A DNA stretch of 64,000 nt from Candidatus Omnitrophota bacterium (GCA_035352955.1 DAOPYQ010000008.1:9701-73700), one strand, 5' to 3'. Counted from the stretch's first letter, positions 5,050 to 36,541 are shown. The notes: generated from the letters alone by a model not told the origin. Translations and numbers: made by a program.

Positions 5050-8000
5050 CTATGCGCGAATCTTAACGCAGTCTTCCCCCAATAGCGCTTCTAATTCCTT
5101 GAACAACGCATCGGAGGTGGTCACTTTCAGATTCTCACCTGAATCGATGATAGTCCGGCCGCCTTTGGGGTCCTGGAGGGTGAAATAAACAGGGGTCGTC
5201 CCTTTGTGACGAAAGAGGATCTTACGGACCTCCTTGAGCACTTCGGGGCCGAGACCGGCAGTCTTGAGATTGATCGCGATCATCCTCGTGAAGCGTTTGG
5301 GAACCTCTTCGAGAGGGACCACTTCGTCCGCAAGGATCTTCGGCGTGTCGTCGCGCGCATCCACTTTGCCGCGGACAAAAACAAGGGAATCCTTCTGGAT
5401 CTGGGCGAGCGCCGCCTTGTAAACGCTCGGGAACACGACTACTTCACAGGAACCGCTCAGGTCCTGAAGCGTCACAAAAGCCATCTTATCGCCCTTCTTC
5501 GTCAAGATCTCCTTGAGACTATCGATGATCCCGCCGATGGTGACTTCGGCCTGATGATTGAATTCAGAGAGCGTTTCCGTCGAAGCGGTCGCGTAATTTT
5601 TGAGAATCGTCGTAAAAGGCGCAAGCGGATGGGAGGAGACATAAAATCCGATCAGTTCACGCTCGTAGGCCAGCTTCTGGCTTTCAGGCCACTCCGGAAT
5701 ATCCGGCACGCTCGCCTGCTGATCGTGGAACGTCTCCTGGGCTCCCCCGCTTTCGAAAAAAGAAAGCTGACCGCGGCTCCGGTCCTTCTGAAGGTTCGCG
5801 CCCATGTCCAAGACCGGATCGAGCATGGCCATAAACTGGGAACGATGAAGTTTCCATTCGTCGAAAGCACCGCATTTGATAAGACTTTCCAGAACTTTCC
5901 GGTTACAGGTCCGAAGATCGACACGCTGGACAAAATCAAAGAGCGATTTAAAAGGGCCGTCCTTCATCCGCGTCGCGATGATCGACTCGATGGCCGTGGA
6001 ACCCACGTTCTTGATGGCCGCAAGCCCGAACCGGATGTGATTTCCGACACAGGTGAAATCGGAAAAACTTTCGTTCACGGCGGGCGGCAGAACATTGATC
6101 TCCATTTTTTTCGAAGCCTCGATGTACTGCACCACCTTATCGGTGTTGCCCATTTCCGAAGTGAGCAACGCCGTCATAAACTCCACCGGATAGTGGGCTT
6201 TAAGATAAGCCGTCTGGTACGAGACCGCGGCGTAGGCCGTCGAATGGGATTTATTGAACCCGTACCCGGAAAAGTAATCGATCTGGTCCCAGATCTTTTC
6301 GGCGATCTTTTCCTTAGCGCCGCGCTTCAGGGCGCCGTCCATAAAAGCCTTCTTTTCCTTGGCCATGACTTCCGGGATCTTTTTCCCGATCGCGCGGCGA
6401 AGCGAATCGGCCTGGGCGAGCGTGAAGCCCGCGAGATCGCTGACGATCCGCATCACCTGCTCCTGATAAAGAATAACGCCATACGTTTCCTTGAGGCTCG
6501 GCTCAAGCGCAGGATGATCGTACTGGATGAGCTTGGGATTGTGCATTCGCTTGATAAAATCGTCCACCATGCCGCTGCCCAGCGGCCCCGGCCGGTAAAG
6601 CGCCAAAAGCGCCACAAGATGCTCGAAACGGCTCGGTTTCATTTTTTTTAGAAGGTCCCGCATCCCCGAACTTTCAAGCTGGAAGATCCCGATAGCATCG
6701 CCTTTTGCGAGCATCTCGTAAGTTTTCGGATCGTCCTCCGGAAGATTGTGGATATCAACCGCCGTGCCGCGCATTTTCTTCACGATCTTAACCGCCTCAT
6801 CGATCACCGTAAGCGTCTTAAGGCCGAGGAAGTCCATCTTGAGAAGACCGATCTTTTCGAGATCTTTCATCGTGAACTGCGTACAGATCTGGTCCTCCGT
6901 TTTGAACAGAGGCACGTGTTCCGTCAGGTGCACGTCCGAGATCACAACACCGGCGGCATGGATCGAAGCATGGCGGGAAAGACCTTCGAGAGCTTTCGAG
7001 GTCTCGATCAGCTGCGCGATGCGGGAATCCTTCACAACCAGCTCTTTAAGCGCCGGCTCTTTTTCCAGGGCCTGATCGATCGTGATACCGAGTTCGTTGG
7101 GGATCGCCTTGGCAATACTGTCCGCCTCACCGTACGTGAGCCCCATGACGCGCCCCACGTCACGCACGACAGCCTTGGCCTTCATCGTCCCGAACGTGAT
7201 GATCTGCGCGACATTTTGTGTGCCGTACTTGCGCTTCACATAATCGATGACCTCGTCGCGGCGTTCATAGCAGAAATCGATGTCGATATCAGGCATGCTG
7301 ACGCGGTCGGGGTTAAGGAACCGCTCGAAATAAAGGTGGTGCTTGAGAGGATCGATGTCCGTGATGTGGAGCGCATAGGCGACCAGACTTCCCGCCGCAG
7401 AACCGCGGCCCGGGCCGACGGGAATGTTCTTTTCCCGGGAGAAACGGATAAAATCCCACACGATAAGAAAATAACTGATATAGCCCATCTTGGCGATCAG
7501 TGCGATCTCGAGACGGAGCCGGGCCTCGTAATCCTTGGGGATCCCTTCCGGAAATCTCCGGTTCAGATTTTCGAAGCAAAGCTCTTCCAGGTATTGCGTT
7601 TGGGTCTTCCCCTGCGGCGGCGGGAATTGCGGCAGGAAGATCTTGTGAAAATCCAGCTCGAGGTTGCAGCGCTCTGAGATCGCGATAGTGTTCTTGAGCG
7701 CCTCCGGGACGCCCCGGAAGATCCGCTGCATTTCTTCGGCGGACCGGAGGTAATACTGGTCGCCCTGATACCGCATGCGGTTCGGCTCGGCGATCTGTGA
7801 TCCGGTCCCGATGCAGATCAGCGCATCGTGGGCCATCGCCTCGTTCTGATGGATATAATGGACATCGTTGGTGGCCACAAGCCCGACCTTGAGTTCCTTG
7901 CCGAGCGCGAGCGAACCTTCAATGACTTTTTTCTCCACATCGAGCCCGTGATCCATTACTTCGAGGAAGAACCGGTCCTTGCCGAAGATCTCGCTGTATT

Positions 8001-8499
8001 CCCGCAGGACTTTCCGGGCGTCGTGCGGCTGGTCGTGATAAAGGTAATAAGGAATTTCCCCTTTGAGGCCGCCGCTCAACCCGATCAACCCTTCGGAATG
8101 TTCTTTGAGGATTTCTTTATCGATGCGCGGGCGGTAATAGAAACCTTCAACGTAGCCGATGCTCGCGAGCTTCATGAGATTCCGGTAGCCTTTTTCATTC
8201 GCGGCCAGAAGCGTAAGATGGAAGGACGCTTCCTTGATCCCGTGGGCTTGCTTTTCGAGCCGGGACCCGGGGGCAACATACGTCCCCATACCGATGATCG
8301 GTTTGATCCCCTCTTTCATGGCCTGGGAATAGAACTGGATCGCACCGAAAAGGTTGCCATTATCGGTCATGGCAAGTGAAGGAAATCGCAGTTCCTTGCT
8401 ACGGACCATCAGCGCATGGATCTTGCAGGTCGCGTCAAGAAGGCTGTACTCGGTGTGACAGTGGAGATGGACGAAATCGCTATGGGACATTGAGCTCAA
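5050..8499 (-). CDS. dnaE: DNA polymerase III alpha subunit DnaE
   Basis: PHP domain FVHLHCHTEYSLLDA, then the palm/fingers and OB regions, 1149 aa. The track start at 8499 is TTG. An ATG at 8490 (MSHSDFVHLHCHTEYS) is equally plausible. Neither has a clear SD. Confidence 0.95.
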   Translation of the reverse strand: MSSMSHSDFVHLHCHTEYSLLDATCKIHALMVRSKELRFPSLAMTDNGNLFGAIQFYSQAMKEGIKPIIGMGTYVAPGSRLEKQAHGIKEASFHLTLLAANEKGYRNLMKLASIGYVEGFYYRPRIDKEILKEHSEGLIGLSGGLKGEIPYYLYHDQPHDARKVLREYSEIFGKDRFFLEVMDHGLDVEKKVIEGSLALGKELKVGLVATNDVHYIHQNEAMAHDALICIGTGSQIAEPNRMRYQGDQYYLRSAEEMQRIFRGVPEALKNTIAISERCNLELDFHKIFLPQFPPPQGKTQTQYLEELCFENLNRRFPEGIPKDYEARLRLEIALIAKMGYISYFLIVWDFIRFSREKNIPVGPGRGSAAGSLVAYALHITDIDPLKHHLYFERFLNPDRVSMPDIDIDFCYERRDEVIDYVKRKYGTQNVAQIITFGTMKAKAVVRDVGRVMGLTYGEADSIAKAIPNELGITIDQALEKEPALKELVVKDSRIAQLIETSKALEGLSRHASIHAAGVVISDVHLTEHVPLFKTEDQICTQFTMKDLEKIGLLKMDFLGLKTLTVIDEAVKIVKKMRGTAVDIHNLPEDDPKTYEMLAKGDAIGIFQLESSGMRDLLKKMKPSRFEHLVALLALYRPGPLGSGMVDDFIKRMHNPKLIQYDHPALEPSLKETYGVILYQEQVMRIVSDLAGFTLAQADSLRRAIGKKIPEVMAKEKKAFMDGALKRGAKEKIAEKIWDQIDYFSGYGFNKSHSTAYAAVSYQTAYLKAHYPVEFMTALLTSEMGNTDKVVQYIEASKKMEINVLPPAVNESFSDFTCVGNHIRFGLAAIKNVGSTAIESIIATRMKDGPFKSLFDFVQRVDLRTCNRKVLESLIKCGAFDEWKLHRSQFMAMLDPVLDMGANLQKDRSRGQLSFFESGGAQETFHDQQASVPDIPEWPESQKLAYERELIGFYVSSHPLAPFTTILKNYATASTETLSEFNHQAEVTIGGIIDSLKEILTKKGDKMAFVTLQDLSGSCEVVVFPSVYKAALAQIQKDSLVFVRGKVDARDDTPKILADEVVPLEEVPKRFTRMIAINLKTAGLGPEVLKEVRKILFRHKGTTPVYFTLQDPKGGRTIIDSGENLKVTTSDALFKELEALLGEDCVKIRA

Positions 8500-8503
8500 A
8501 TCT

Positions 8504-8611
8504 CAAAATTCAAAAATAAAAATTACGGAGTCGCTTCGCGACATTACAAGAAACGCGTCTCTTTGAGTTTTTCGTTTTGCTTTTGAATTTTGCTTTTTAA
8601 CTTTTGAATTG
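8504..8611. repeat. AT-rich TTTTGAATT repeat cluster (one inverted, two direct copies) between guaA stop and dnaE start
   Basis: CAAAATTCAAAA (8504..8515) is the reverse complement of TTTTGAATTTTG (8581..8592). A further TTTTGAATT lies at 8602..8610. Related TTTGAATTT copies occur at ~23106 and ~23153 upstream of ubiA. Confidence 0.35.
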
Positions 8612-8615
8612 ATTA

Positions 8616-10157
8616 TTATTCCCACTCGATCGTCGCGGGAGGCTTCGAGGAGATGTCGTAACAGACGCGGTTGATACCGCGGACTTCATTGATAATGCGG
8701 TTCGAGATACGGCCGAGAAGTTCCGGGGGCAATTTCGCCCAGTCGGCCGTCATGCCGTCAAGGGACGTCACGGCGCGGACCGCCACGGCGTTCTCGTAGG
8801 TCCGCTCGTCCCCCATCACGCCAACACTCTGGACGGGAAGCAGGACCGCGAACGATTGCCATACCTTGTCATAGTAACCGGCTTTCTTGATCTCATCGAC
8901 CACAATCCAATCCGCCTTGCGGAGAAGATCGCAACGGTCCTTGCGGACCTCTCCGAGAATCCTCACCGCAAGCCCCGGCCCGGGAAACGGTTGCCGACCA
9001 ACGATATCCTTGTCGATCCCGAGCGCGTAACCGACCGCGCGAACTTCATCTTTGAAAAGTTCTTTCAACGGTTCGACGAGTTTAAATTTCATATCCTTCG
9101 GAAGCCCGCCGACATTGTGATGACTTTTGATCATGCTGGTCGGTCCGCCAAAGTAGGAAACCGATTCGATCACGTCCGGGTAAAGCGTCCCCTGAGCGAG
9201 GAACGGTACCTTGCCGAGGCTGTTGGCTTCTTTCTGAAAAACATCGATGAACGTCTTTCCGATGATCTTGCGTTTTTTCTCCGGATCGATCACTTTTTTA
9301 AGCCGGTCAAGAAAGATCTTCTCGGCATCCACGACCTTGAGGTTCATCTTGAAATGCCCGCGGAAGGTAGTCTCAACTTTGTCCGCCTCTTTATAACGCA
9401 ATAACCCGTTGTCGACAAAGATACAGTTGAGTTTTTTGCCGATAGCCTTGTGGAGAAGAACCGCAGCCACCGAAGAATCCACTCCACCGGAAAGCCCGAG
9501 CACCACGCGATCGCGGCCAACCTGCTCGCGGATCTTCCGGATGCTTTCCTTGATGAAAGATTTCGGAGTCCAGTTCTGCCGGCACCCGCAAACGCCTACC
9601 AGAAAATTTTTGAGGATGCGGGAGCCTTGTTCGGTATGAACGACCTCGGCGTGGAACTGGATCGCATAGATCTTTCGCTTGGGGTCACCCATCGCGGCGA
9701 ACGGCGCATTCTCCGTATAAGCCAGCCGTTCAAAACCATCCGGGATCTTATCGAGCTTGTCGCCGTGGCTCATCCAGCAGGTCAATTTCCTTGCGACCCC
9801 CTTGAAAAGCGGACTTTCACGCTTGGAAATATGGAGCGTTGAAAAACCGTACTCGCGTTTTTTGGATTTATGGACCCGGCCACCGAGCTTGTGGGAAAGG
9901 AGTTGCATGCCATAGCAGATCCCGAGGATAGGAACGCCGCAATAGAAGAACCGGCGGTCCGGGATCGGAGCTCCCTTGCCGTACACATTGGCCGGAGAAC
10001 CCGAAAAAATGATCCCCTTGGGCTTCTCGGCCATCACCTTCTCGAACGGCACGCTAAAGGGATACACCTTCGAAAAGACCTTGTTCTCACGAACGCGACG
10101 GGCAATGAGCTGTGTGTACTGCGATCCGAAATCCAATACAACAATGGTTTGGTCCAT
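8616..10157 (-). CDS. guaA: GMP synthase (glutamine-hydrolysing) GuaA
   Basis: [24 protein letters not shown] glutamine-amidotransferase N-terminus. [10 protein letters not shown]-loop. Conserved C-terminal PATIEWE. The ATG at 10157 is preferred over the TTG at 10181. Confidence 0.95.
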
Positions 10158-10172
10158 GAATGATCCTGATAC

Positions 10173-10232
10173 AACGCACAACGCTCAACACGCAATGCAA
10201 AAGCCTTTCCGCTGCGCGTTGAGCGTCGACCG
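10173..10232. repeat. GC-rich palindromic intergenic element, copy A (REP-like)
   Basis: ACGCTCAACACGCA...(17 nt)...GCTGCGCGTTGAGCGT forms a ~13 bp stem with one mismatch. Between the guaB-like stop and the guaA start. Confidence 0.45.
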
Positions 10233-10239
10233 TTGTTCG

Positions 10240-11400
10240 TTATTTACACATTCCGAGTTTTTGTGCGGACTGAAAAAGTTTTCCTTCGGTCTTGATGGCC
10301 GGAGCGATCACGATCTCGGTCAACTGCATCTCCCGGATGTTTTTCGCGCCAACATTCCCCATCGAAGTCTTGAGCGCCCCGACAAGGTTCTGTGTCCCAT
10401 CATCGAGCCGTGCGGGACCGTAAAGGATCTCTTCGAGCGAACCGGTCGTCCCGACGTGAATACGCGTCCCGCGAGGAAGATTCGCATGCGGCGTCGCCAT
10501 CCCCCAGTGAAAACCGCGGCCGGGCGCCTCTTTGGTCCTGGCAAACGCGGAACCGACCATCACACCGTCCGCACCGGAAGCGATCGATTTACAAATATCG
10601 CCGCCTGTGGACATCCCGCCGTCGGCGATAATGGAAACGTACTTTCCTGTTTTTTTATGGTAGTGTTCGCGCGCCGCGGCACAATCGGCGATCGCGGTCA
10701 CCTGCGGCACACCGATCCCGAGAACCCCACGGGTCGTACAAGCGGATCCGGGACCGATCCCGACGAGAAGACCCGCGCAACCGGTTTCGGCAAGTTCGAG
10801 AGCGACCTTGTAGGTCACGCAATTGCCGAGAATCACGGGAATCTTCGTTTTTTTGCAAAGTTTCGAAAAATCCACGACCTGATAGGCCTTGGAGATGTGG
10901 CGAACGGTCGTCACCGTGGACTGAACGACAAGGATATCGGCCCCCGCCTCTTCCACGATCTTGCCGAAACGTTCGGCCCTTTGCGGGATCGCACTCACGG
11001 CGCAAAGCACTTTTGCCTTTTTGATCTCCCGGACGCGCTTCACGATCAACTTTTCGCTGATGGGTTTTACATAAAGTTTCTGGACCAGTTGCGTCGCTTT
11101 CTCCGGCGTCGTTTTGGAGATTTCATCCAGGATCGCCTCATAATCATCGTAGCGGGTATAGATCCCCTCGAGATTGAGTACGGCCAAACCGCCGAGCTTT
11201 CCCATCGCGATCGCAAATTTCGGATCGACAACGCCGTCCATGGCCGACGCCAGGAACGGAATCGGAAGGGTCATCTTCCCCAAAGGCATCCGGATATCGA
11301 CTTCCTCGGGATTGATCGTAACATCTCCCGGCACCAACGCGATCTCATCAAATCCATAAGCGCGACGGGCCTTGCGGTCTTTACCGATAAAAACTGACAT
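10240..11400 (-). CDS. IMP dehydrogenase-family protein lacking the CBS pair (GuaB-related / GMP-reductase-like)
   Basis: IMPDH TIM-barrel motifs are present (catalytic-loop region [20 protein letters not shown]). It is only 386 aa and the CBS subdomain is absent. ATG at 11400 with AAGGAGGA 7 nt upstream. Confidence 0.8.
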
Positions 11401-11436
11401 GGTGGATCCTCCTTAGGTGGTGATGGCTGAAATGAA

Positions 11437-11480
11437 AAAAGGCGCAAAGACGAACGCTCGCTGCGTTCCCTTGCGCCCTT
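11437..11480. repeat. GC-rich nested hairpin, copy B (related?)
   Basis: AAAGGCGCAAAGACGAACGCTCGCTGCGTTCCCTTGCGCCCTT: inner GAACGC/GCGTTC and outer GGCGCAA/TTGCGCC stems. In the divergent region between the guaB-like gene and the SurA_N gene. Confidence 0.35.
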
Positions 11481-11564
11481 GAAATATGCTGGATGGATAA
11501 TGTTTCGTGTCCCATTTGCGGTATCATACTAAAGCGTCTTTTTCTTGTCAACGCACGAAAACAG

Positions 11565-11612
11565 CTCAACGCGCAACGCACAGCGAGTCCTTTTTTCCGT
11601 TGCGCGTTGCCC
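11565..11612. repeat. GC-rich palindromic intergenic element, copy C (REP-like)
   Basis: Perfect 12 bp inverted repeat CAACGCGCAACG (11568..11579) / CGTTGCGCGTTG (11598..11609) with a 19 nt T-rich loop. Preceded by GCTCAACGCG as in copies A and E. Confidence 0.5.
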
Positions 11613-11668
11613 GACGCGCCCTTCTTGCTTGTGCTTTTACGAGCAGGTGTGCTACATTATCCGCCATC

Positions 11669-12313
11669 ATGCTGAAGATTTTCCGCAAATATACCAAAGT
11701 CATTATCTGGATCGTCGTCGTCTCTTTTGTCCTTTGGGGCGGCTATTCGATCAGCGCGATGAAAAAAGAGGGCCGCTTTGCCGGCGAGGTCTTCGGCAAG
11801 ATCGTCACCTTCCAGGAATTCAACCGGTTTTACCGCGCCACCCAAATCTTCATGCCTTCGAAGGAACCGGTGAAAGACCCCGACCTTCTCCGCAACTACA
11901 CCTGGCAGAACATCGTTTATTCCCGGGAAGCCCAACGCGAAGGCCTCAAGGTGACCGATGAAGAGGTCCGCGGAGAGATCTCAAACATCCTTAATCAGCA
12001 GGGGCTCATCAACCCGACCCCGGAACAATATAAGGTCTGGTTGACCCGGGCCCTGCAGATGTCCCCTCGCGAATTCGAAGAAGGCCTGCGGGAATTCATC
12101 CGGATCCAGAAATTGCTCCAGGGCAAGATTCCTGCCCCTGCGGTCCCTGAAGCCGGCAAGCCCGTCGACAAAAAGGCGGAAGCAGAAGCTTTCGCGAAGC
12201 AAAAAGAAGTATTCATGAAGTGGACCGACGAGCTGAATAAAAATTCCGGTTTCAAGGATTATCTCGCCGTCCAGCAGGGATCGACCGAACCCTCCGAACC
12301 GCCTCAGAGCTGA
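11669..12313 (+). CDS. SurA N-terminal-domain periplasmic chaperone-like protein (PpiD/SurA_N type, no PPIase domain)
   Basis: N-terminus MLKIFRKYTKVIIWIVVVSFVLWG (signal-anchor helix). Then VTDEEVRGEISNIL...PEQYKVWLTRALQMSPREFEEGLREFIRIQKLL, typical of SurA_N. The ATG at 11669 is chosen because the track start at 11507 would read through a palindromic repeat. No SD upstream. Confidence 0.6.
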   Translation: MLKIFRKYTKVIIWIVVVSFVLWGGYSISAMKKEGRFAGEVFGKIVTFQEFNRFYRATQIFMPSKEPVKDPDLLRNYTWQNIVYSREAQREGLKVTDEEVRGEISNILNQQGLINPTPEQYKVWLTRALQMSPREFEEGLREFIRIQKLLQGKIPAPAVPEAGKPVDKKAEAEAFAKQKEVFMKWTDELNKNSGFKDYLAVQQGSTEPSEPPQS

Positions 12314-12316
12314 TCC

Positions 12317-13369
12317 ATGACGAAAAAAACCGTTGAAGAATTCGCGAAGCTTGTCGGTGGAACCGTTATCGGGGACGGAAGGCTCCTGATCGAGGGGATC
12401 ACGAATTTCGAAAATCCGCTGAAGGGTCACCTCTCTTTCGTCCAGGACGAAAAAGGCTTCAAGATCCTCGAAACCTCCGAGATCGCCTGCATGATCGTTC
12501 CGAAACAAATCCAGCGATCCTCCAAAGTCCTGATCCAGGTCGATCATCCCAAACGGGCGTGGGCCGCACTTCTCCGGGAACTCTTTCCCCCCCGAAAATT
12601 CATCCCTGGGATCTCCCCGCAAGCTTCCGTCGCGAAATCCGCGAAATTGGGGCAGAACGTCACGATTGAGGCCTTCGTTTGTATCGGAGAAAATTCCGTC
12701 ATCGGCGACGGAACGGTTGTGAGATCGAGCGCTTTTATCGATGAGAATGTCAAAACCGGTGCGAACTGCGTCATTCATCCGAACGTAACGATCTACCGGG
12801 ACACCGAGCTCGGCGCGAACGTCATCCTCCACGCGGGTTCCGTGATTGGCGCGGACGGGTTCGGCTATGTCGCAACCGCGACCGCACACGAAAAGCTCCC
12901 CCAGATCGGCAATGTTGTGATCGAAGATGACGTGGAGATCGGATCCTGTTCGACGATCGACCGCGCAGCGATCGGTTCCACTCGCATCGGCAGAGGCTGC
13001 AAGATCGACAATCTCGTCCAGGTCGCGCACAACGTGCAGATCGGCCCGCACACCGTCATTTCCGCGCAAACCGGCATCTCCGGCAGTTGCAAGATCGGCT
13101 CTCATGTCACGATGGGCGGCAGTGTCGGGGTCGGGGATCACGTGGAGATCGGCGACTGGGCCATGATCGGCGCCGGCGCGGGGTTCCCTTCTAACAAGAA
13201 AGTCCCTGGTAAACAGATCTATTTCGGCCAGCCTGCCCGTCCTTACGCAGAAATGAGAAAACAGTTCGGTGCGCAGCTCCGCTCCGCCGAAACGTTGGAT
13301 GACGTCCGCGCCCTCAAGAAAAAAGTCGCGGAACTCGAAAAGAGACTAGAAGAAACTTCTCAGAAGTAA
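12317..13369 (+). CDS. lpxD: UDP-3-O-acylglucosamine N-acyltransferase LpxD
   Basis: Left-handed beta-helix hexapeptide repeats throughout ([43 protein letters not shown]...). 350 aa. The start overlaps the upstream stop (ATGA-type junction at 12311..12319). Confidence 0.9.
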
Positions 13370-13376
13370 TCCCCTG

Positions 13377-13433
13377 CCAGCGCAACGGACAACGCGCAGC
13401 GTAAAGATCTTTTCGTGAAACGTTGCGCGAATC
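13377..13433. terminator. GC-rich palindromic element copy D, placed as a candidate bidirectional terminator between convergent lpxD and folE
   Basis: GCGCAACG (13380..13387)...ACAACGCGCAGCG...CGTTGCGC (13421..13428). Fills essentially the whole 64 nt lpxD-folE spacer. No clean U-tract. Confidence 0.4.
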
Positions 13434-14024
13434 TTACTCTTCCCTTTTTAGCCGGATTAGGCTAAGGAATTCGCTGCGGGAGCGGGCGTCTTTGCGGAAG
13501 GCCCCAAGCATGGAGCTCGTAATCGTGTACGCGTCGGCCTTTTTAACACCCCGCATAGACATGCATAGATGTAAAGCCTCGATCACAACCGCGACGCCCT
13601 TCGGTTTTAACGCGTCCATCATGCATTCGGCAATCTGGGTCGTAAGGCGCTCCTGGACCTGAAGACGCCGCGAGAACACTTCGACAAGGCGCGGGATCTT
13701 CGAAAGACCGATGATCTTTCCGTTGGGGATATAGGCGATATGGGCCTTGCCATAGAATGGCAGAAGGTGATGCTCGCAAAGCGAAAAGATCTCGATGTCT
13801 TTCACGATCACCATCTCGTCGTAGGGCTCTTTGAAAACCGCATGCGCGAGGATCGCTTTGGGATCCATTTGATAGCCCTCGGTCAGATAGTGGAGAGATT
13901 TGGCCACACGGACTGGCGTCCGCTGAAGCCCTTCACGTTTCGGATTCTCGCCCAAAAGACCCAATAATTCCGCAACAAGTTTTGGAAACCGTTCTTCTGA
14001 ATCGATCATCTTCTGCTTTGCCAT
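13434..14024 (-). CDS. folE: GTP cyclohydrolase I FolE
   Basis: [56 protein letters not shown] matches the FolE active-site region (CEHH). The ATG at 14024 with GGGAGAG SD is preferred over the GTG at 14057. Confidence 0.9.
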
Positions 14025-23029: not shown

Positions 23030-23164
23030 TCGATCGCCTTTTGTTAATTTTGAAACTCGAAACAGCTATCGAATAACGCAAAATCCGCATCGAGGGTTAC
23101 TGGAAAATTTGAATTTAAGATTTATTTCGGGCTTCGCTTCTCGGAGTTTGAGGTTTGAATTTTG

Positions 23165-35280: not shown

Positions 35281-35583
35281 TCATCCCCCGCTAAATTGGA
35301 AAGCCATTTTTAAAAGAACCGTCACAAGGACCCGGTTCGTCACATAAAGAATAAAAAACGCCAAAAGCGGCGAGAGATCCATCATCCCGAAACGCAGCGG
35401 CAGGCGCTTGAGCGGGTCCAGGATCGGATCCGTCACCTGCTGAAGGAACCGGACGGGCGCGGAAAACGGATCGACCGGAAACCAGCTCACGATGATCCTG
35501 GCAAAAAGCAACCAGTAAAGGATCTTGCAGATGCTGTCCACCATCAGCGCGGCCCCCTGAAAAATGATCCCGAACACGAACAT
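35281..35583 (-). CDS. yggT: YggT-family membrane protein
   Basis: ARIIVSWFP...DPILDPLKRLP. Two TM helices. 100 aa. Confidence 0.75.
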   Translation of the reverse strand: MFVFGIIFQGAALMVDSICKILYWLLFARIIVSWFPVDPFSAPVRFLQQVTDPILDPLKRLPLRFGMMDLSPLLAFFILYVTNRVLVTVLLKMAFQFSGG

Positions 35584-35591
35584 GAAAACTC

Positions 35592-35645
35592 CTTGCGCTC
35601 AACGCGTAAAGCACAACGTAAAAGCTTTCCCGTTGCACGTTACCT
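35592..35645. repeat. GC-rich element copy E (REP-like), between proC stop and yggT start
   Basis: TTGCGCTCAACGCGTAAAGCACAACG...CCGTTGCACGTTA shares the GCTCAACGCG core with copies A and C and has an imperfect inverted arm. Confidence 0.35.
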
Positions 35646-35728
35646 TGAGCCTCATTAGTGCTTATTGGAAATCAGGGCTCTCCTGACTATCCGATCAATA
35701 TTTAAAGCGGTCAGGATGACCGTTGCGC

Positions 35729-36541
35729 TTATTTTTTCCTCAATTGCCGGCTGCGGACCATTGCAGCGGCAAGCGCCCGGTGAAAGATCCTGCCGAATTT
35801 TTTCTGTTTCAGCACTTTGAGCGCGGCATCGGTCGTCCCCTTTTTCGAAGTGACTTTTTCCCGAAGCTCCGCGCACGAATGCTCCGATCCTTTGGCCAGA
35901 AGCGCCGCGCCAAGACCGGTCTGAACCGCAAGCGTCGCCGCCACATTCGCCGGCAGGCCCTGCATCACACCGAAATCCGCCATCAGTTCCATCAAGTGAA
36001 AGAAATAGGCCGGCCCGCTGCCGCTCACCGCGGTCACGAGATCAAAAGACTTTTCGGGAAGCCGGACAACCGCCCCGCACCCTGAGAAAAGATTCTCCGC
36101 GAAAGCGATCCATTTTTTATTCTTCCCGCAAACCGCCGTCATGGATTCGCCGACCTTTGCGCCAAGATTCGGCATCGCGCGGACCACTTCAGCCTTTCCG
36201 CCGAAAGCTTCCCGGATCCTTTCCGTCGTCAGCCCGGCCAGGATCGAGATCACGCAGTGGCCCGGTCTGAAGAAATATTTATGCTCTGCGGCGAACGGCG
36301 CGAAATCCTGCGGCTTCTGGGCAAGCATCACCACATCGGACTTATCCAGAAGTTCCACCGCCGAGGCCGCGCAATGGACGCGGGTCTTGCGGGCAAAACC
36401 TCTTGCTTTGGCTACGATCTTGTCATAAACCCATATTTGAGAAGGACTTGCGATCCCTTTGCGGAGGACCCCCTCAAGGATCGAAGTTCCCATGTTCCCG
36501 ACCCCGATCAAGCCTATCTTCCATTTACCGAGTCTCTTCAT
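35729..36541 (-). CDS. proC: Pyrroline-5-carboxylate reductase ProC
   Basis: IGLIGVGNMG Rossmann. MPNLGAKVGESMT. SGSGPAYFF. 270 aa. ATGA overlap with the yggS stop. Confidence 0.9.
   Translation of the reverse strand: MKRLGKWKIGLIGVGNMGTSILEGVLRKGIASPSQIWVYDKIVAKARGFARKTRVHCAASAVELLDKSDVVMLAQKPQDFAPFAAEHKYFFRPGHCVISILAGLTTERIREAFGGKAEVVRAMPNLGAKVGESMTAVCGKNKKWIAFAENLFSGCGAVVRLPEKSFDLVTAVSGSGPAYFFHLMELMADFGVMQGLPANVAATLAVQTGLGAALLAKGSEHSCAELREKVTSKKGTTDAALKVLKQKKFGRIFHRALAAAMVRSRQLRKK

Follow-up and report, generated by a model that had tools for sequence, protein, structure and literature searches.

Dispersed heptameric inverted repeats in the intergenic spacers of a Candidatus Omnitrophota genome

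What are the G+C-rich, palindrome-like repeats that lie in several short spacers of a Candidatus Omnitrophota genome, and how did they come to be there? We consider this question for a stretch of 64,000 nt from that genome (hereafter the window; one strand, with all coordinates counted from its first letter), which falls within contig CAYPJP010000007.1 of the assembly GCA_964411105.1. An initial annotation had described variants of one motif, arranged as inverted repeats, in at least five intergenic spacers, of which it listed five, and had taken them for a genome-specific family resembling repetitive extragenic palindromes (REPs) and bacterial interspersed mosaic elements (BIMEs). The sequences it quoted are present where it placed them, and the family is real in four of the five listed spacers. 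It is not, however, specific to one genome: the elements, which we call the CAACG family, are convergent arrays of 7-nt units, about 65 bp in all, that recur in at least eight other metagenome-assembled genomes (MAGs).

Results

Seven-nucleotide phasing defines four intergenic elements

A family profile built from 10 copies in other genomes was used in an nhmmer search of the window. It matched at four sites only, all of them intergenic, which are given here with their letters divided into units.

Element A, 10170-10244 (profile match 10173-10240, E 1.9e-11): TACAACG CACAACG CTCAACA CGCAATG caaaagcctttc CGCTGCG CGTTGAG CGTCGAC CGTTGTT CGTTATT
Element B, 11565-11613 (profile match 11564-11619, E 1.5e-8): CTCAACG CGCAACG CACAGCG agtccttttttc CGTTGCG CGTTGCC CG
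Element C, 13380-13429 (profile match 13380-13429, E 6.6e-7): (G)CGCAACG GACAACG CGCAGCG taaagatcttttcgtgaaa CGTTGCG CG; a degenerate copy with a short right arm
Element D, 35595-35650 (profile match 35596-35650, E 3e-7): GCG CTCAACG CGTAAAG CACAACG taaaagctttcc CGTTGCA CGTTACC TTGAGC

What is non-random at these sites is the 7-nt phasing and not the motif as a word. As plain pentamers, CAACG is found 92 times in the window and CGTTG 66 times, and the 9-mer CAACGCGCA, with at most one mismatch allowed, gives 22 matches against 19.4 expected. This is no enrichment, and plain over-representation of the motif is thereby ruled out. Runs of CAACG or CGTTG at exact 7-nt spacing, in contrast, are found only at 10172-10242, 11567-11609 and 13383-13401, that is, in elements A, B and C; against these three phased arrays, 300 dinucleotide-preserving shuffles of the window gave a mean of 0.003 per shuffle. 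The fifth spacer that had been grouped with these four, at 11437-11480, contains neither heptads nor a profile match.

Two distinct arms make up an ordered element

Members of the family share a layout in which NNCAACG units (modally four) lead into an A/T-rich centre, most commonly 11-12 nt long and in many copies TAAAAGnnTTTT, that is followed by CGTTGNN units (again modally four), for a total of 60-76 bp. Over 161 units the logo reads C-D-C-A-A-C-G, with six of the seven heptad positions conserved and position 2 almost never C (2/161). The polarity of the arms is fixed as well, the CAACG-run preceding the CGTTG-run in 23 cases and following it in none.

The two arms are not mirror copies of one another. 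Of 74 unit pairs, 19 form a Watson-Crick pair at the variable heptad position, where random pairing would give 28.6 (P = 0.006 for 19 or fewer, an approximate value since the counted copies are partly related), and no compensatory covariation was found in the stem. Because this position pairs below chance, it is sequence identity, rather than stem complementarity, that is conserved; and because it so seldom pairs, the hairpin would consist of 6-bp helices split by G-A, T-C or A-C mismatches.

Each arm has an end of its own. The arm that we call T begins with CTCAACG, and its next unit is often the derived CGCAAAG, while the U arm ends with CGTTGCG CG and has variable inner units. Nearly all elements consist of one T arm and one U arm, an order repeated in copies from no fewer than eight MAGs; these copies align over their full length and carry derived variants at fixed positions, such as a CAAAG unit second from the T end. 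The T-arm signature is present in elements A, B and D of the window, and D also has the diagnostic second unit of the family (xxxAAAG). Adjacent units are heterogeneous at one position, so that the arrays are not homogenised. Given the distinct T and U ends, and arms that do not mirror each other, it is the whole asymmetric element that looks like the copied unit.

Gene context and predicted folding

The genes that flank the elements, together with dnaE, are the following.

dnaE, 5050-8490, minus strand
guaA, 8616-10157, minus strand
guaB3 (a GuaB3-family gene related to inosine monophosphate dehydrogenase), 10240-11400, minus strand
SurA_N-like gene, 11669-12313, plus strand
lpxD, 12317-13369, plus strand
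folE, 13434-14024, minus strand
yggT, 35281-35583, minus strand
proC, 35729-36541, minus strand

Elements A and D lie between co-directional genes, C between convergent genes and B between divergent ones, and in this respect, as a dispersed, intergenic and palindrome-like family, the repeats behave much as REPs do, in agreement with the initial annotation. Element A occupies the 82-nt spacer between guaB3 and guaA (both on the minus strand), overlaps the guaB3 stop codon and is the longest inverted repeat of the whole window. Element B occupies the spacer from which guaB3 (minus strand, start at 11400) and the SurA_N-like gene (plus strand) diverge, immediately before the -35 box of the promoter that serves guaB3; the corresponding spacer of two relatives (L034 and L035) has no array equivalent to it. 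Element C fills the 64-nt spacer between the convergent lpxD and folE, a junction that measures 56 nt in another relative (L033), where no heptad array was found. Element D is situated between proC and yggT (both on the minus strand) and stops 11 nt ahead of the codon at which yggT begins.

The predicted stability of these elements varies widely. Element A folds to -42 kcal/mol on the minus strand (z -6.9), against just -29.6 kcal/mol on the plus strand, so that the stems first proposed for all the spacers are strongly borne out here. They are weak in the other three elements, which do not stand clearly above shuffles (z -0.04 to -2.3): B gives z of -1.5 and -2.0 on its two strands, C gives -1.5 and -0.04, and D folds to -22 kcal/mol on the minus strand (z -2.3) and -13.3 on the other. 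In both A and D, then, the better fold is on the transcribed strand, as might be expected of G-U pairing under RNA-level selection. This asymmetry is absent over 23 orthologous spacers, in which the sense strand is the more stable in 11 and the antisense strand in 12 (Wilcoxon p = 0.96), and we rejected it as a sign of such selection. Taken as a whole, the evidence for selection at the RNA level is mixed. The orientation of the element relative to transcription also differs between element A and a copy in another genome (L010), although few copies enter this comparison.

The family recurs in other genomes

Copies were counted in the 64-kb window and in loci of about 8 kb from other MAGs. An exact-pattern scan of one genome per species returned 27 loci, about 22 of which are obvious family members, in at least eight other MAGs. 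These genomes are labelled as Omnitrophota or as PVC (Lentisphaerae, Victivallales and Chthoniobacterales); some hold several copies, with up to 3-4 in a single 8-kb locus. The proposal of a genome-specific family is thus not upheld.

The family profile found no match in 680 kb of syntenic loci from relatives, a set of 80 metagenomic loci chosen only by their GuaB3 protein (62-96% identity to that of the window). Five assemblies of this strain, obtained from different samples, match the window at 100% identity, which makes strain polymorphism uninformative as a source of evidence on gain, loss or slippage. A phage origin was rejected, as viral contigs contained no match.

Copies within genes and the hypervariable loops of MqnD

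All four window copies are intergenic, as the initial annotation had it, but its statement that the motif avoids coding sequence does not extend to other MAGs, in which CAACG-family copies lie in frame inside long or giant open reading frames (ORFs). Well-supported examples are those in L010, L015, L029 and L032. The in-frame copies encode a peptide of the form ...NAQR(A/S)TxNAQR... followed by ...LRVARCALR.... In one protein the array occupies a linker whose homologs hold unrelated sequence.

MqnD (1,4-dihydroxy-6-naphthoate synthase) offers a further view of such sites. Among 29 Omnitrophota orthologs it has two hypervariable spots, one on either side of a conserved KKIAIPGKLTTAYLVLQLY, and our alignment (A1) shows two, in some orthologs three, hypervariable loops; the protein ranges from 262 to 344 aa in length at 72-85% identity. 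The loci compared were as follows.

MqnD loci: L010 4270-5154; L114, L115, L116 1501-2535

At the DNA level, the spots of four orthologs hold four families, CAACG, GTACGG, GGATGGA-like and GGCCACG. Two of the four have one arm in the first spot and an inverted arm in the second, and the other two have a full pair in the first spot and one further inverted arm in the second. Array-free orthologs also exist, one of which has a downstream spacer of 17 nt as against 80-90 nt in array-bearing genomes.

A small gene for a GIY-YIG domain protein, which has a nuclease fold, lies two genes downstream of MqnD (L114, L115 and L010 3095-3520; for P0025, by its gene list alone) and is conserved in several Omnitrophota loci rich in heptad elements. 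Its position beside MqnD is probably mere synteny.

Unrelated heptad families occupy the same spacers

The window contains a second heptad family which, like the 7-nt tandem unit itself, had been overlooked at first. Arrays in it were located with Tandem Repeats Finder (TRF) and by autocorrelation.

8491-8615, guaA-dnaE spacer: (N)TCAAA(N) family array, with TRF period-7 repeats at 8498-8524 and 8581-8610 and a lag-7 autocorrelation of 0.49
23030-23164, UbiA/UbiD-Pfam gene spacer: second copy of the (N)TCAAA(N) family, with a lag-7 autocorrelation of 0.46

The first of these consists of four (N)TCAAA(N) units, about 40 nt, and five to seven (N)TTTGA(N) units, an architecture like that of the CAACG family, of which it is not a member; CAAAATTCAAACCTCAAAC-type units are common to both arrays. 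The family is A/T-rich, and the predicted fold of 8491-8615 is no better than that of shuffles (z -0.4), so that these arrays present the heptad architecture without a convincing hairpin. Two independent Logan assemblies of the same strain (L002 and L005) both stop at 8664, about 50 nt from the arrays at 8491-8615, and these repeats may break short-read assemblies.

Relatives carry inverted heptad repeats of other sequence in the same spacers.

L033, guaB3-guaA and guaA-dnaE junctions: GGGACTN
L034, guaB3-guaA and guaA-dnaE junctions: GTACGGN
L035, L037, L040, L044, L087 and L088, guaB3-guaA spacer (and downstream of guaA where present): other families

In 49 relatives guaB3 adjoins guaA, and in 14 of these the two genes have no spacer at all. 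Where the spacer measures 35-250 nt, about 10 of 23 are essentially one heptad element, again inverted arrays of other families. As the same spacers hold different heptad families in different relatives, the simplest reading is that a few permissive sites in these compact genomes have been colonised repeatedly and independently.

Period 7 prevails among the tandem repeats of the lineage. For the period-7 comparisons we used 919 kb of its sequence, with spacers and coding regions taken from crude ORF calls that overcall genes and designate about 91% as coding and 9% as non-coding. At a TRF score of at least 40, period 7 accounts for 42 arrays in these 919 kb, compared with none, 6 and 12 for periods 6, 8 and 9, respectively. 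By these crude calls, 51 of 86 period-7 arrays are mostly intergenic, as against the roughly 9% of sequence that is non-coding. A set chosen without regard to the repeat contained 63 period-7 arrays, of which 36 are accompanied by an inverted partner (at least three units) and 5 by a direct one. Dozens of unrelated heptad sequences occur in the lineage.

Some unit sequences do recur in loci and MAGs that are otherwise unrelated. A GCCGTAC/GTACGGC core is seen in six loci (L006, L024, L031, L034, L093 and L104) and GGACT-containing units in five (L032, L033, L044, L046 and L108), and the GGGACTC unit of L033 matches the Xanthomonas GGGANTN consensus. One close relative (L034 2753-3186) has, in a convergent spacer of 434 nt, a long palindrome of unrelated sequence, gtgtcattgcgagc...gctcctcgcaatgacac, which may be another dispersed repeat family.

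The guaB3 leader and a giant gene

The site excluded from the family is a structure of a different kind, listed here with the guaB3 promoter.

11431-11480, minus strand: hairpin and T-run, not a family member (fold -26.2 kcal/mol, z -5.2)
11551 to 11523, minus strand: sigma-70-like guaB3 promoter (TTGACA, 17 nt, TATGAT; 11/12 matches)

On the minus strand, a G+C-rich hairpin from 11480 to 11438 leads into a T-run from 11437 to 11431; the ribosome-binding site of guaB3 comes about 17 nt further downstream, and the hairpin with its T-run looks like an intrinsic terminator or attenuator in the guaB3 5' leader. The promoter sits between element B and this hairpin, and relatives keep its -10 box and the ACCGCAAATGGGACA that follows. 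Read in order, the leader (11401-11551, minus strand) comprises the near-consensus promoter, an TATGATACCGCAAATGGGACA stretch, the hairpin with its T-run and the ribosome-binding site. The TATGATACCGCAAATGGGACA stretch is strongly conserved in relatives (L033-L040 and L054), and the hairpin with its T-run keeps its position in relatives while its sequence differs. This arrangement, for which Rfam gave no match, suggests a conserved attenuator ahead of a guanine-nucleotide gene, or else a leader able to sense the initiating nucleotide.

Elsewhere in the window, the 3' part of a giant gene extends over 42832-64000 on the minus strand and continues past the window end. Its product as called is 7823 aa long, with Pfam matches to HEAT, PHP and ELFV-dehydrogenase. 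Giant genes have reportedly been described before in Omnitrophota.

Discussion

Origin of the elements

We give an even chance to the reading in which elements A to D all derive from one non-autonomous palindromic repeat, which spreads by copy-and-paste and whose copies survive in permissive spacers and protein loops. That there is one family follows from the full-length alignment of its members, their shared derived variants and the pairing of T with U arms over at least eight MAGs. The model is also favoured by arms that do not mirror each other, a fixed polarity with modal arm and centre sizes, the lack of profile matches in the syntenic loci of relatives, the heptad arrays of other families in their guaB3-guaA spacers, the shorter spacer of the array-free MqnD ortholog, the in-frame copies and the precedent of Xanthomonas. 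Under this model a trans-acting activity would duplicate the whole asymmetric element to new places, and copies would persist where insertions are tolerated, in short spacers and in a few protein surface loops, three heptads corresponding to seven codons. Transcribed copies would fold into imperfect hairpins and might, as a by-product, shield mRNA 3' ends or punctuate them (between guaB3 and guaA, for instance), an effect that would be secondary and not the reason for the existence of the family. The 7-nt periodicity, which is common to many unrelated families, would probably derive from the generation or maintenance of the arrays by slippage-prone 7-nt units.

Several observations weigh against copying of this kind. 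No transposase or mobilising gene was found in the window or next to the copies, no target-site duplication is evident in their flanks, and no polymorphic site, filled in one genome and empty in another with conserved flanks, was recovered. The spacers of relatives are wholly different from stop to start codon, and for this reason neither element boundaries nor target duplications can be defined from them. Mobility as such also gives no reason why many unrelated heptad sequences should share a period of seven. In MqnD, moreover, the two arms of a pair can lie on either side of some 60-85 nt of native coding sequence that is conserved, and the same two loops have been colonised at least four times by different heptad families, neither of which is explained by one contiguous insertion.

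If the elements were instead selected RNA structures, whose hairpins terminate transcription or block 3'-to-5' exonucleases and so set the relative expression of their neighbours in the manner of the malE-malF REPs, their common sequence would be of secondary importance. Their placement agrees with this up to a point, in that A, D and the arrays at 8491-8615 come just after stop codons in co-directional pairs and C lies between convergent genes; A and D fold better on the transcribed strand, and relatives have some heptad hairpin in the same two spacers. Yet B occupies a divergent spacer, where it precedes a promoter, 14 of the 49 relatives have no spacer at the site of A, and orientation relative to transcription is not fixed. 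No T-run follows any of A to D, at which a terminator scan flags just weak partial stems (in B and C), though the genome does use a hairpin and T-run at 11431-11480; the four elements are not canonical intrinsic terminators. The folds of B, C and 8491-8615 do not differ significantly from those of shuffles, the variable position is mismatched above chance without compensatory covariation, and the 23 orthologous spacers show no preference for the sense strand. Selection for RNA structure as the origin of the family thus seems rather unlikely to us. We also consider it unlikely that the arrays arose independently in place by 7-nt replication slippage, with template switching or hairpin selection making the inverted pairs. 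Slippage would fit the dominance of period 7 among the tandem repeats of the lineage, its dozens of unrelated heptad sequences and the differing unit numbers of two orthologous copies (L007 and L009), and it was proposed for the heptanucleotide excess described by Mrazek et al. 2007, as summarised in PMC4679880. It would not lead one to expect an ordered T/U consensus with derived units at fixed positions across loci and genomes, or arrays that are heterogeneous and not homogenised, or the sharing of the CAACG family by the spacers of one genome when the same spacers of close relatives hold other families.

Two further possibilities turn on proteins that would read or write the heptads. By analogy, the elements could be DNA operators or architectural sites, each heptad binding one subunit of a repeat-reading protein, and could thus serve as loading sites that organise or regulate their neighbours. 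The ribbon-helix-helix omega protein, for example, recognises 7-bp units set side by side, whether the array is direct or convergent. Such a role would suit six of seven positions conserved with no need for pairing, a seventh that is almost never C, a constant number of about four plus four units, strictly convergent polarity, an A/T-rich centre and the abutment of B on the -35 box of the guaB3 promoter. We nevertheless hold it to be very unlikely, given that several unrelated families in one genome would each need a reader of their own, that copies lie inside ORFs and between convergent genes, that their position relative to promoters is inconsistent and that no candidate binding protein was identified. 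A dedicated new machinery that writes or maintains the arrays, in place of an ordinary transposon or chance slippage, appears quite unlikely as well. It might extend DNA ends or fill gaps with 7-nt units copied from a template, which would give convergent arms that are not mirror copies, replacement of local sequence and no target duplication; or it might comprise related proteins that read heptads with a specificity varying from genome to genome. If it existed, the period of seven common to many unrelated families, the families proper to each genome, and the recolonised spacers and MqnD loops (at least four times, with inverted pairs) would fit together.

Whatever their origin, these repeats have practical consequences. 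They can mislead gene calling, since they translate to QRATxNAQR and RCALR peptides, they may break assemblies, and their annotation as terminators or REPs is to be avoided. The lineage may be unusually informative about such elements: its genomes are compact, with spacers that are absent or almost wholly one element, several families occur per genome, relatives hold other families at the same junctions, and copies have entered proteins in frame. Metagenomes combined with metatranscriptomes could make both the mechanism of spread and the reason for a period of seven testable.

Comparison with known repeat systems

REPs are short, dispersed and mostly extragenic palindromes whose opposite-orientation doublets often fold into a long hairpin; they lie mainly between co-directional and convergent genes, occasionally within genes, with several families per genome, and are recognised by a GTAG or CGTC tag, conserved and unpaired, at one of their ends (PMC3733652). 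REPs are also characteristically of high copy number; the window has four CAACG copies in its 64 kb. The CAACG family resembles REPs, BIMEs and REPINs in being short, dispersed, mostly extragenic and composed of opposite-oriented doublets. A REP unit, however, is an imperfect palindrome of 20-40 bp, whereas an arm of the CAACG family (21-35 nt) is a heptad array and not self-complementary, the inverted repeat arising only from both arms together, over 60-76 bp. No conserved GTAG or CGTC tag is present at the ends of the elements, which begin CTCAACG... after (A)G and close with ...CGTTGCGCG; the CGTC inside element A belongs to a degenerate CGTTGAC unit. The Pfam-annotated genes of the window include no match to Y1_Tnp, the domain of the REP-associated tyrosine transposase (RAYT) that mobilises REPs and whose gene they typically flank, and by inspection of translations the genes that copies bracket elsewhere look like housekeeping genes (HflX-, FtsH-, NifU-, LpxA- and methyltransferase-like), so that a RAYT or other transposase beside the copies was rejected as well. 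A REP-like label therefore fits the behaviour of the family but not its membership, and a REP/BIME identity is not supported.

Several other identities were considered. The arms serve as imperfect terminal inverted repeats, as in a miniature inverted-repeat transposable element; no direct repeat suggestive of target-site duplication was seen in the 25-nt flanks of 27 copies, and no insertion sequence with the family's ends was found among the genes of the window or those bracketed elsewhere. An integron attC site was considered, as GCTCAAC/GTTGAGC is like the R''/R' core sites, and rejected: the U end, CGTTGCGCG, is at odds with it, housekeeping genes in either orientation flank the elements, and the window contains no integrase. 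No tRNA, tmRNA or known RNA family was found. A search of the whole window against Rfam 15 gave no match at gathering score, and the sole match in 8400-13600 at E <=1, to mir-249 on hairpin A, is spurious (23.7 bits against a 70-bit threshold).

For the copies inside genes, a parallel is offered by the Rickettsia palindromic elements (RPEs), which Ogata et al. in 2000 reportedly found both between genes and in frame, as peptide segments in tolerated loops. RPEs are 100-150 bp long and have no heptad periodicity. The in-frame MqnD and ORF copies of other MAGs resemble them; the window has no in-frame copy.

Dispersed heptanucleotide repeats are themselves known in cyanobacteria, Xanthomonas, Geobacter and Beggiatoaceae, in none of which a mechanism or function is established. 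The heptanucleotide repeats of cyanobacteria known as STRR were reportedly described by Mazel et al. in 1990. The closest described system is that of the Xanthomonas GGGAATC arrays. There are about 185 of these per genome, most with four units and most joined two by two in 70-75 convergent pairs; 89-93% are intergenic near the end of the upstream ORF, few are between divergent genes and 7-11% are intragenic (PMC4692102). Length and sequence of these heptamers and of the dispersed Nostoc GGGGA(T/C)T heptamers vary between related species (Rehm et al. 2015, PMC4692102). Geobacter metallireducens has four-unit heptanucleotide elements with the consensus GGACCGG, which occur 49 times between and within genes, and five-unit elements as well (PMC2700814). 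The TAACTGA repeats of Beggiatoaceae form 169 direct sets against one indirect, just upstream of start codons, and genome-specific heptanucleotide families of about 2-6 units, mostly intergenic and several per genome, are noted in the same work as having no known function (PMC4679880); according to the summary given there of Mrazek et al. 2007, heptanucleotides are commoner than any other long simple repeat in most genomes of prokaryotes.

With the Xanthomonas and Nostoc arrays the CAACG family shares 7-nt units, a part-degenerate consensus, arrays of about four units, close convergent pairing and a mostly intergenic location. It differs from both in that neither CDCAACG nor its complement has G-runs, so that no G-quadruplex would form, and from the direct upstream arrays of TAACTGA in consisting of inverted pairs that lie mostly downstream of genes. 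The CAACG elements are thus a new example of dispersed heptameric inverted repeats and not a classical REP, and they add to what Xanthomonas offers a new host phylum, a unit that is not G-rich, an ordered asymmetric consensus held across genomes, and clear, in-frame copies in protein loops.

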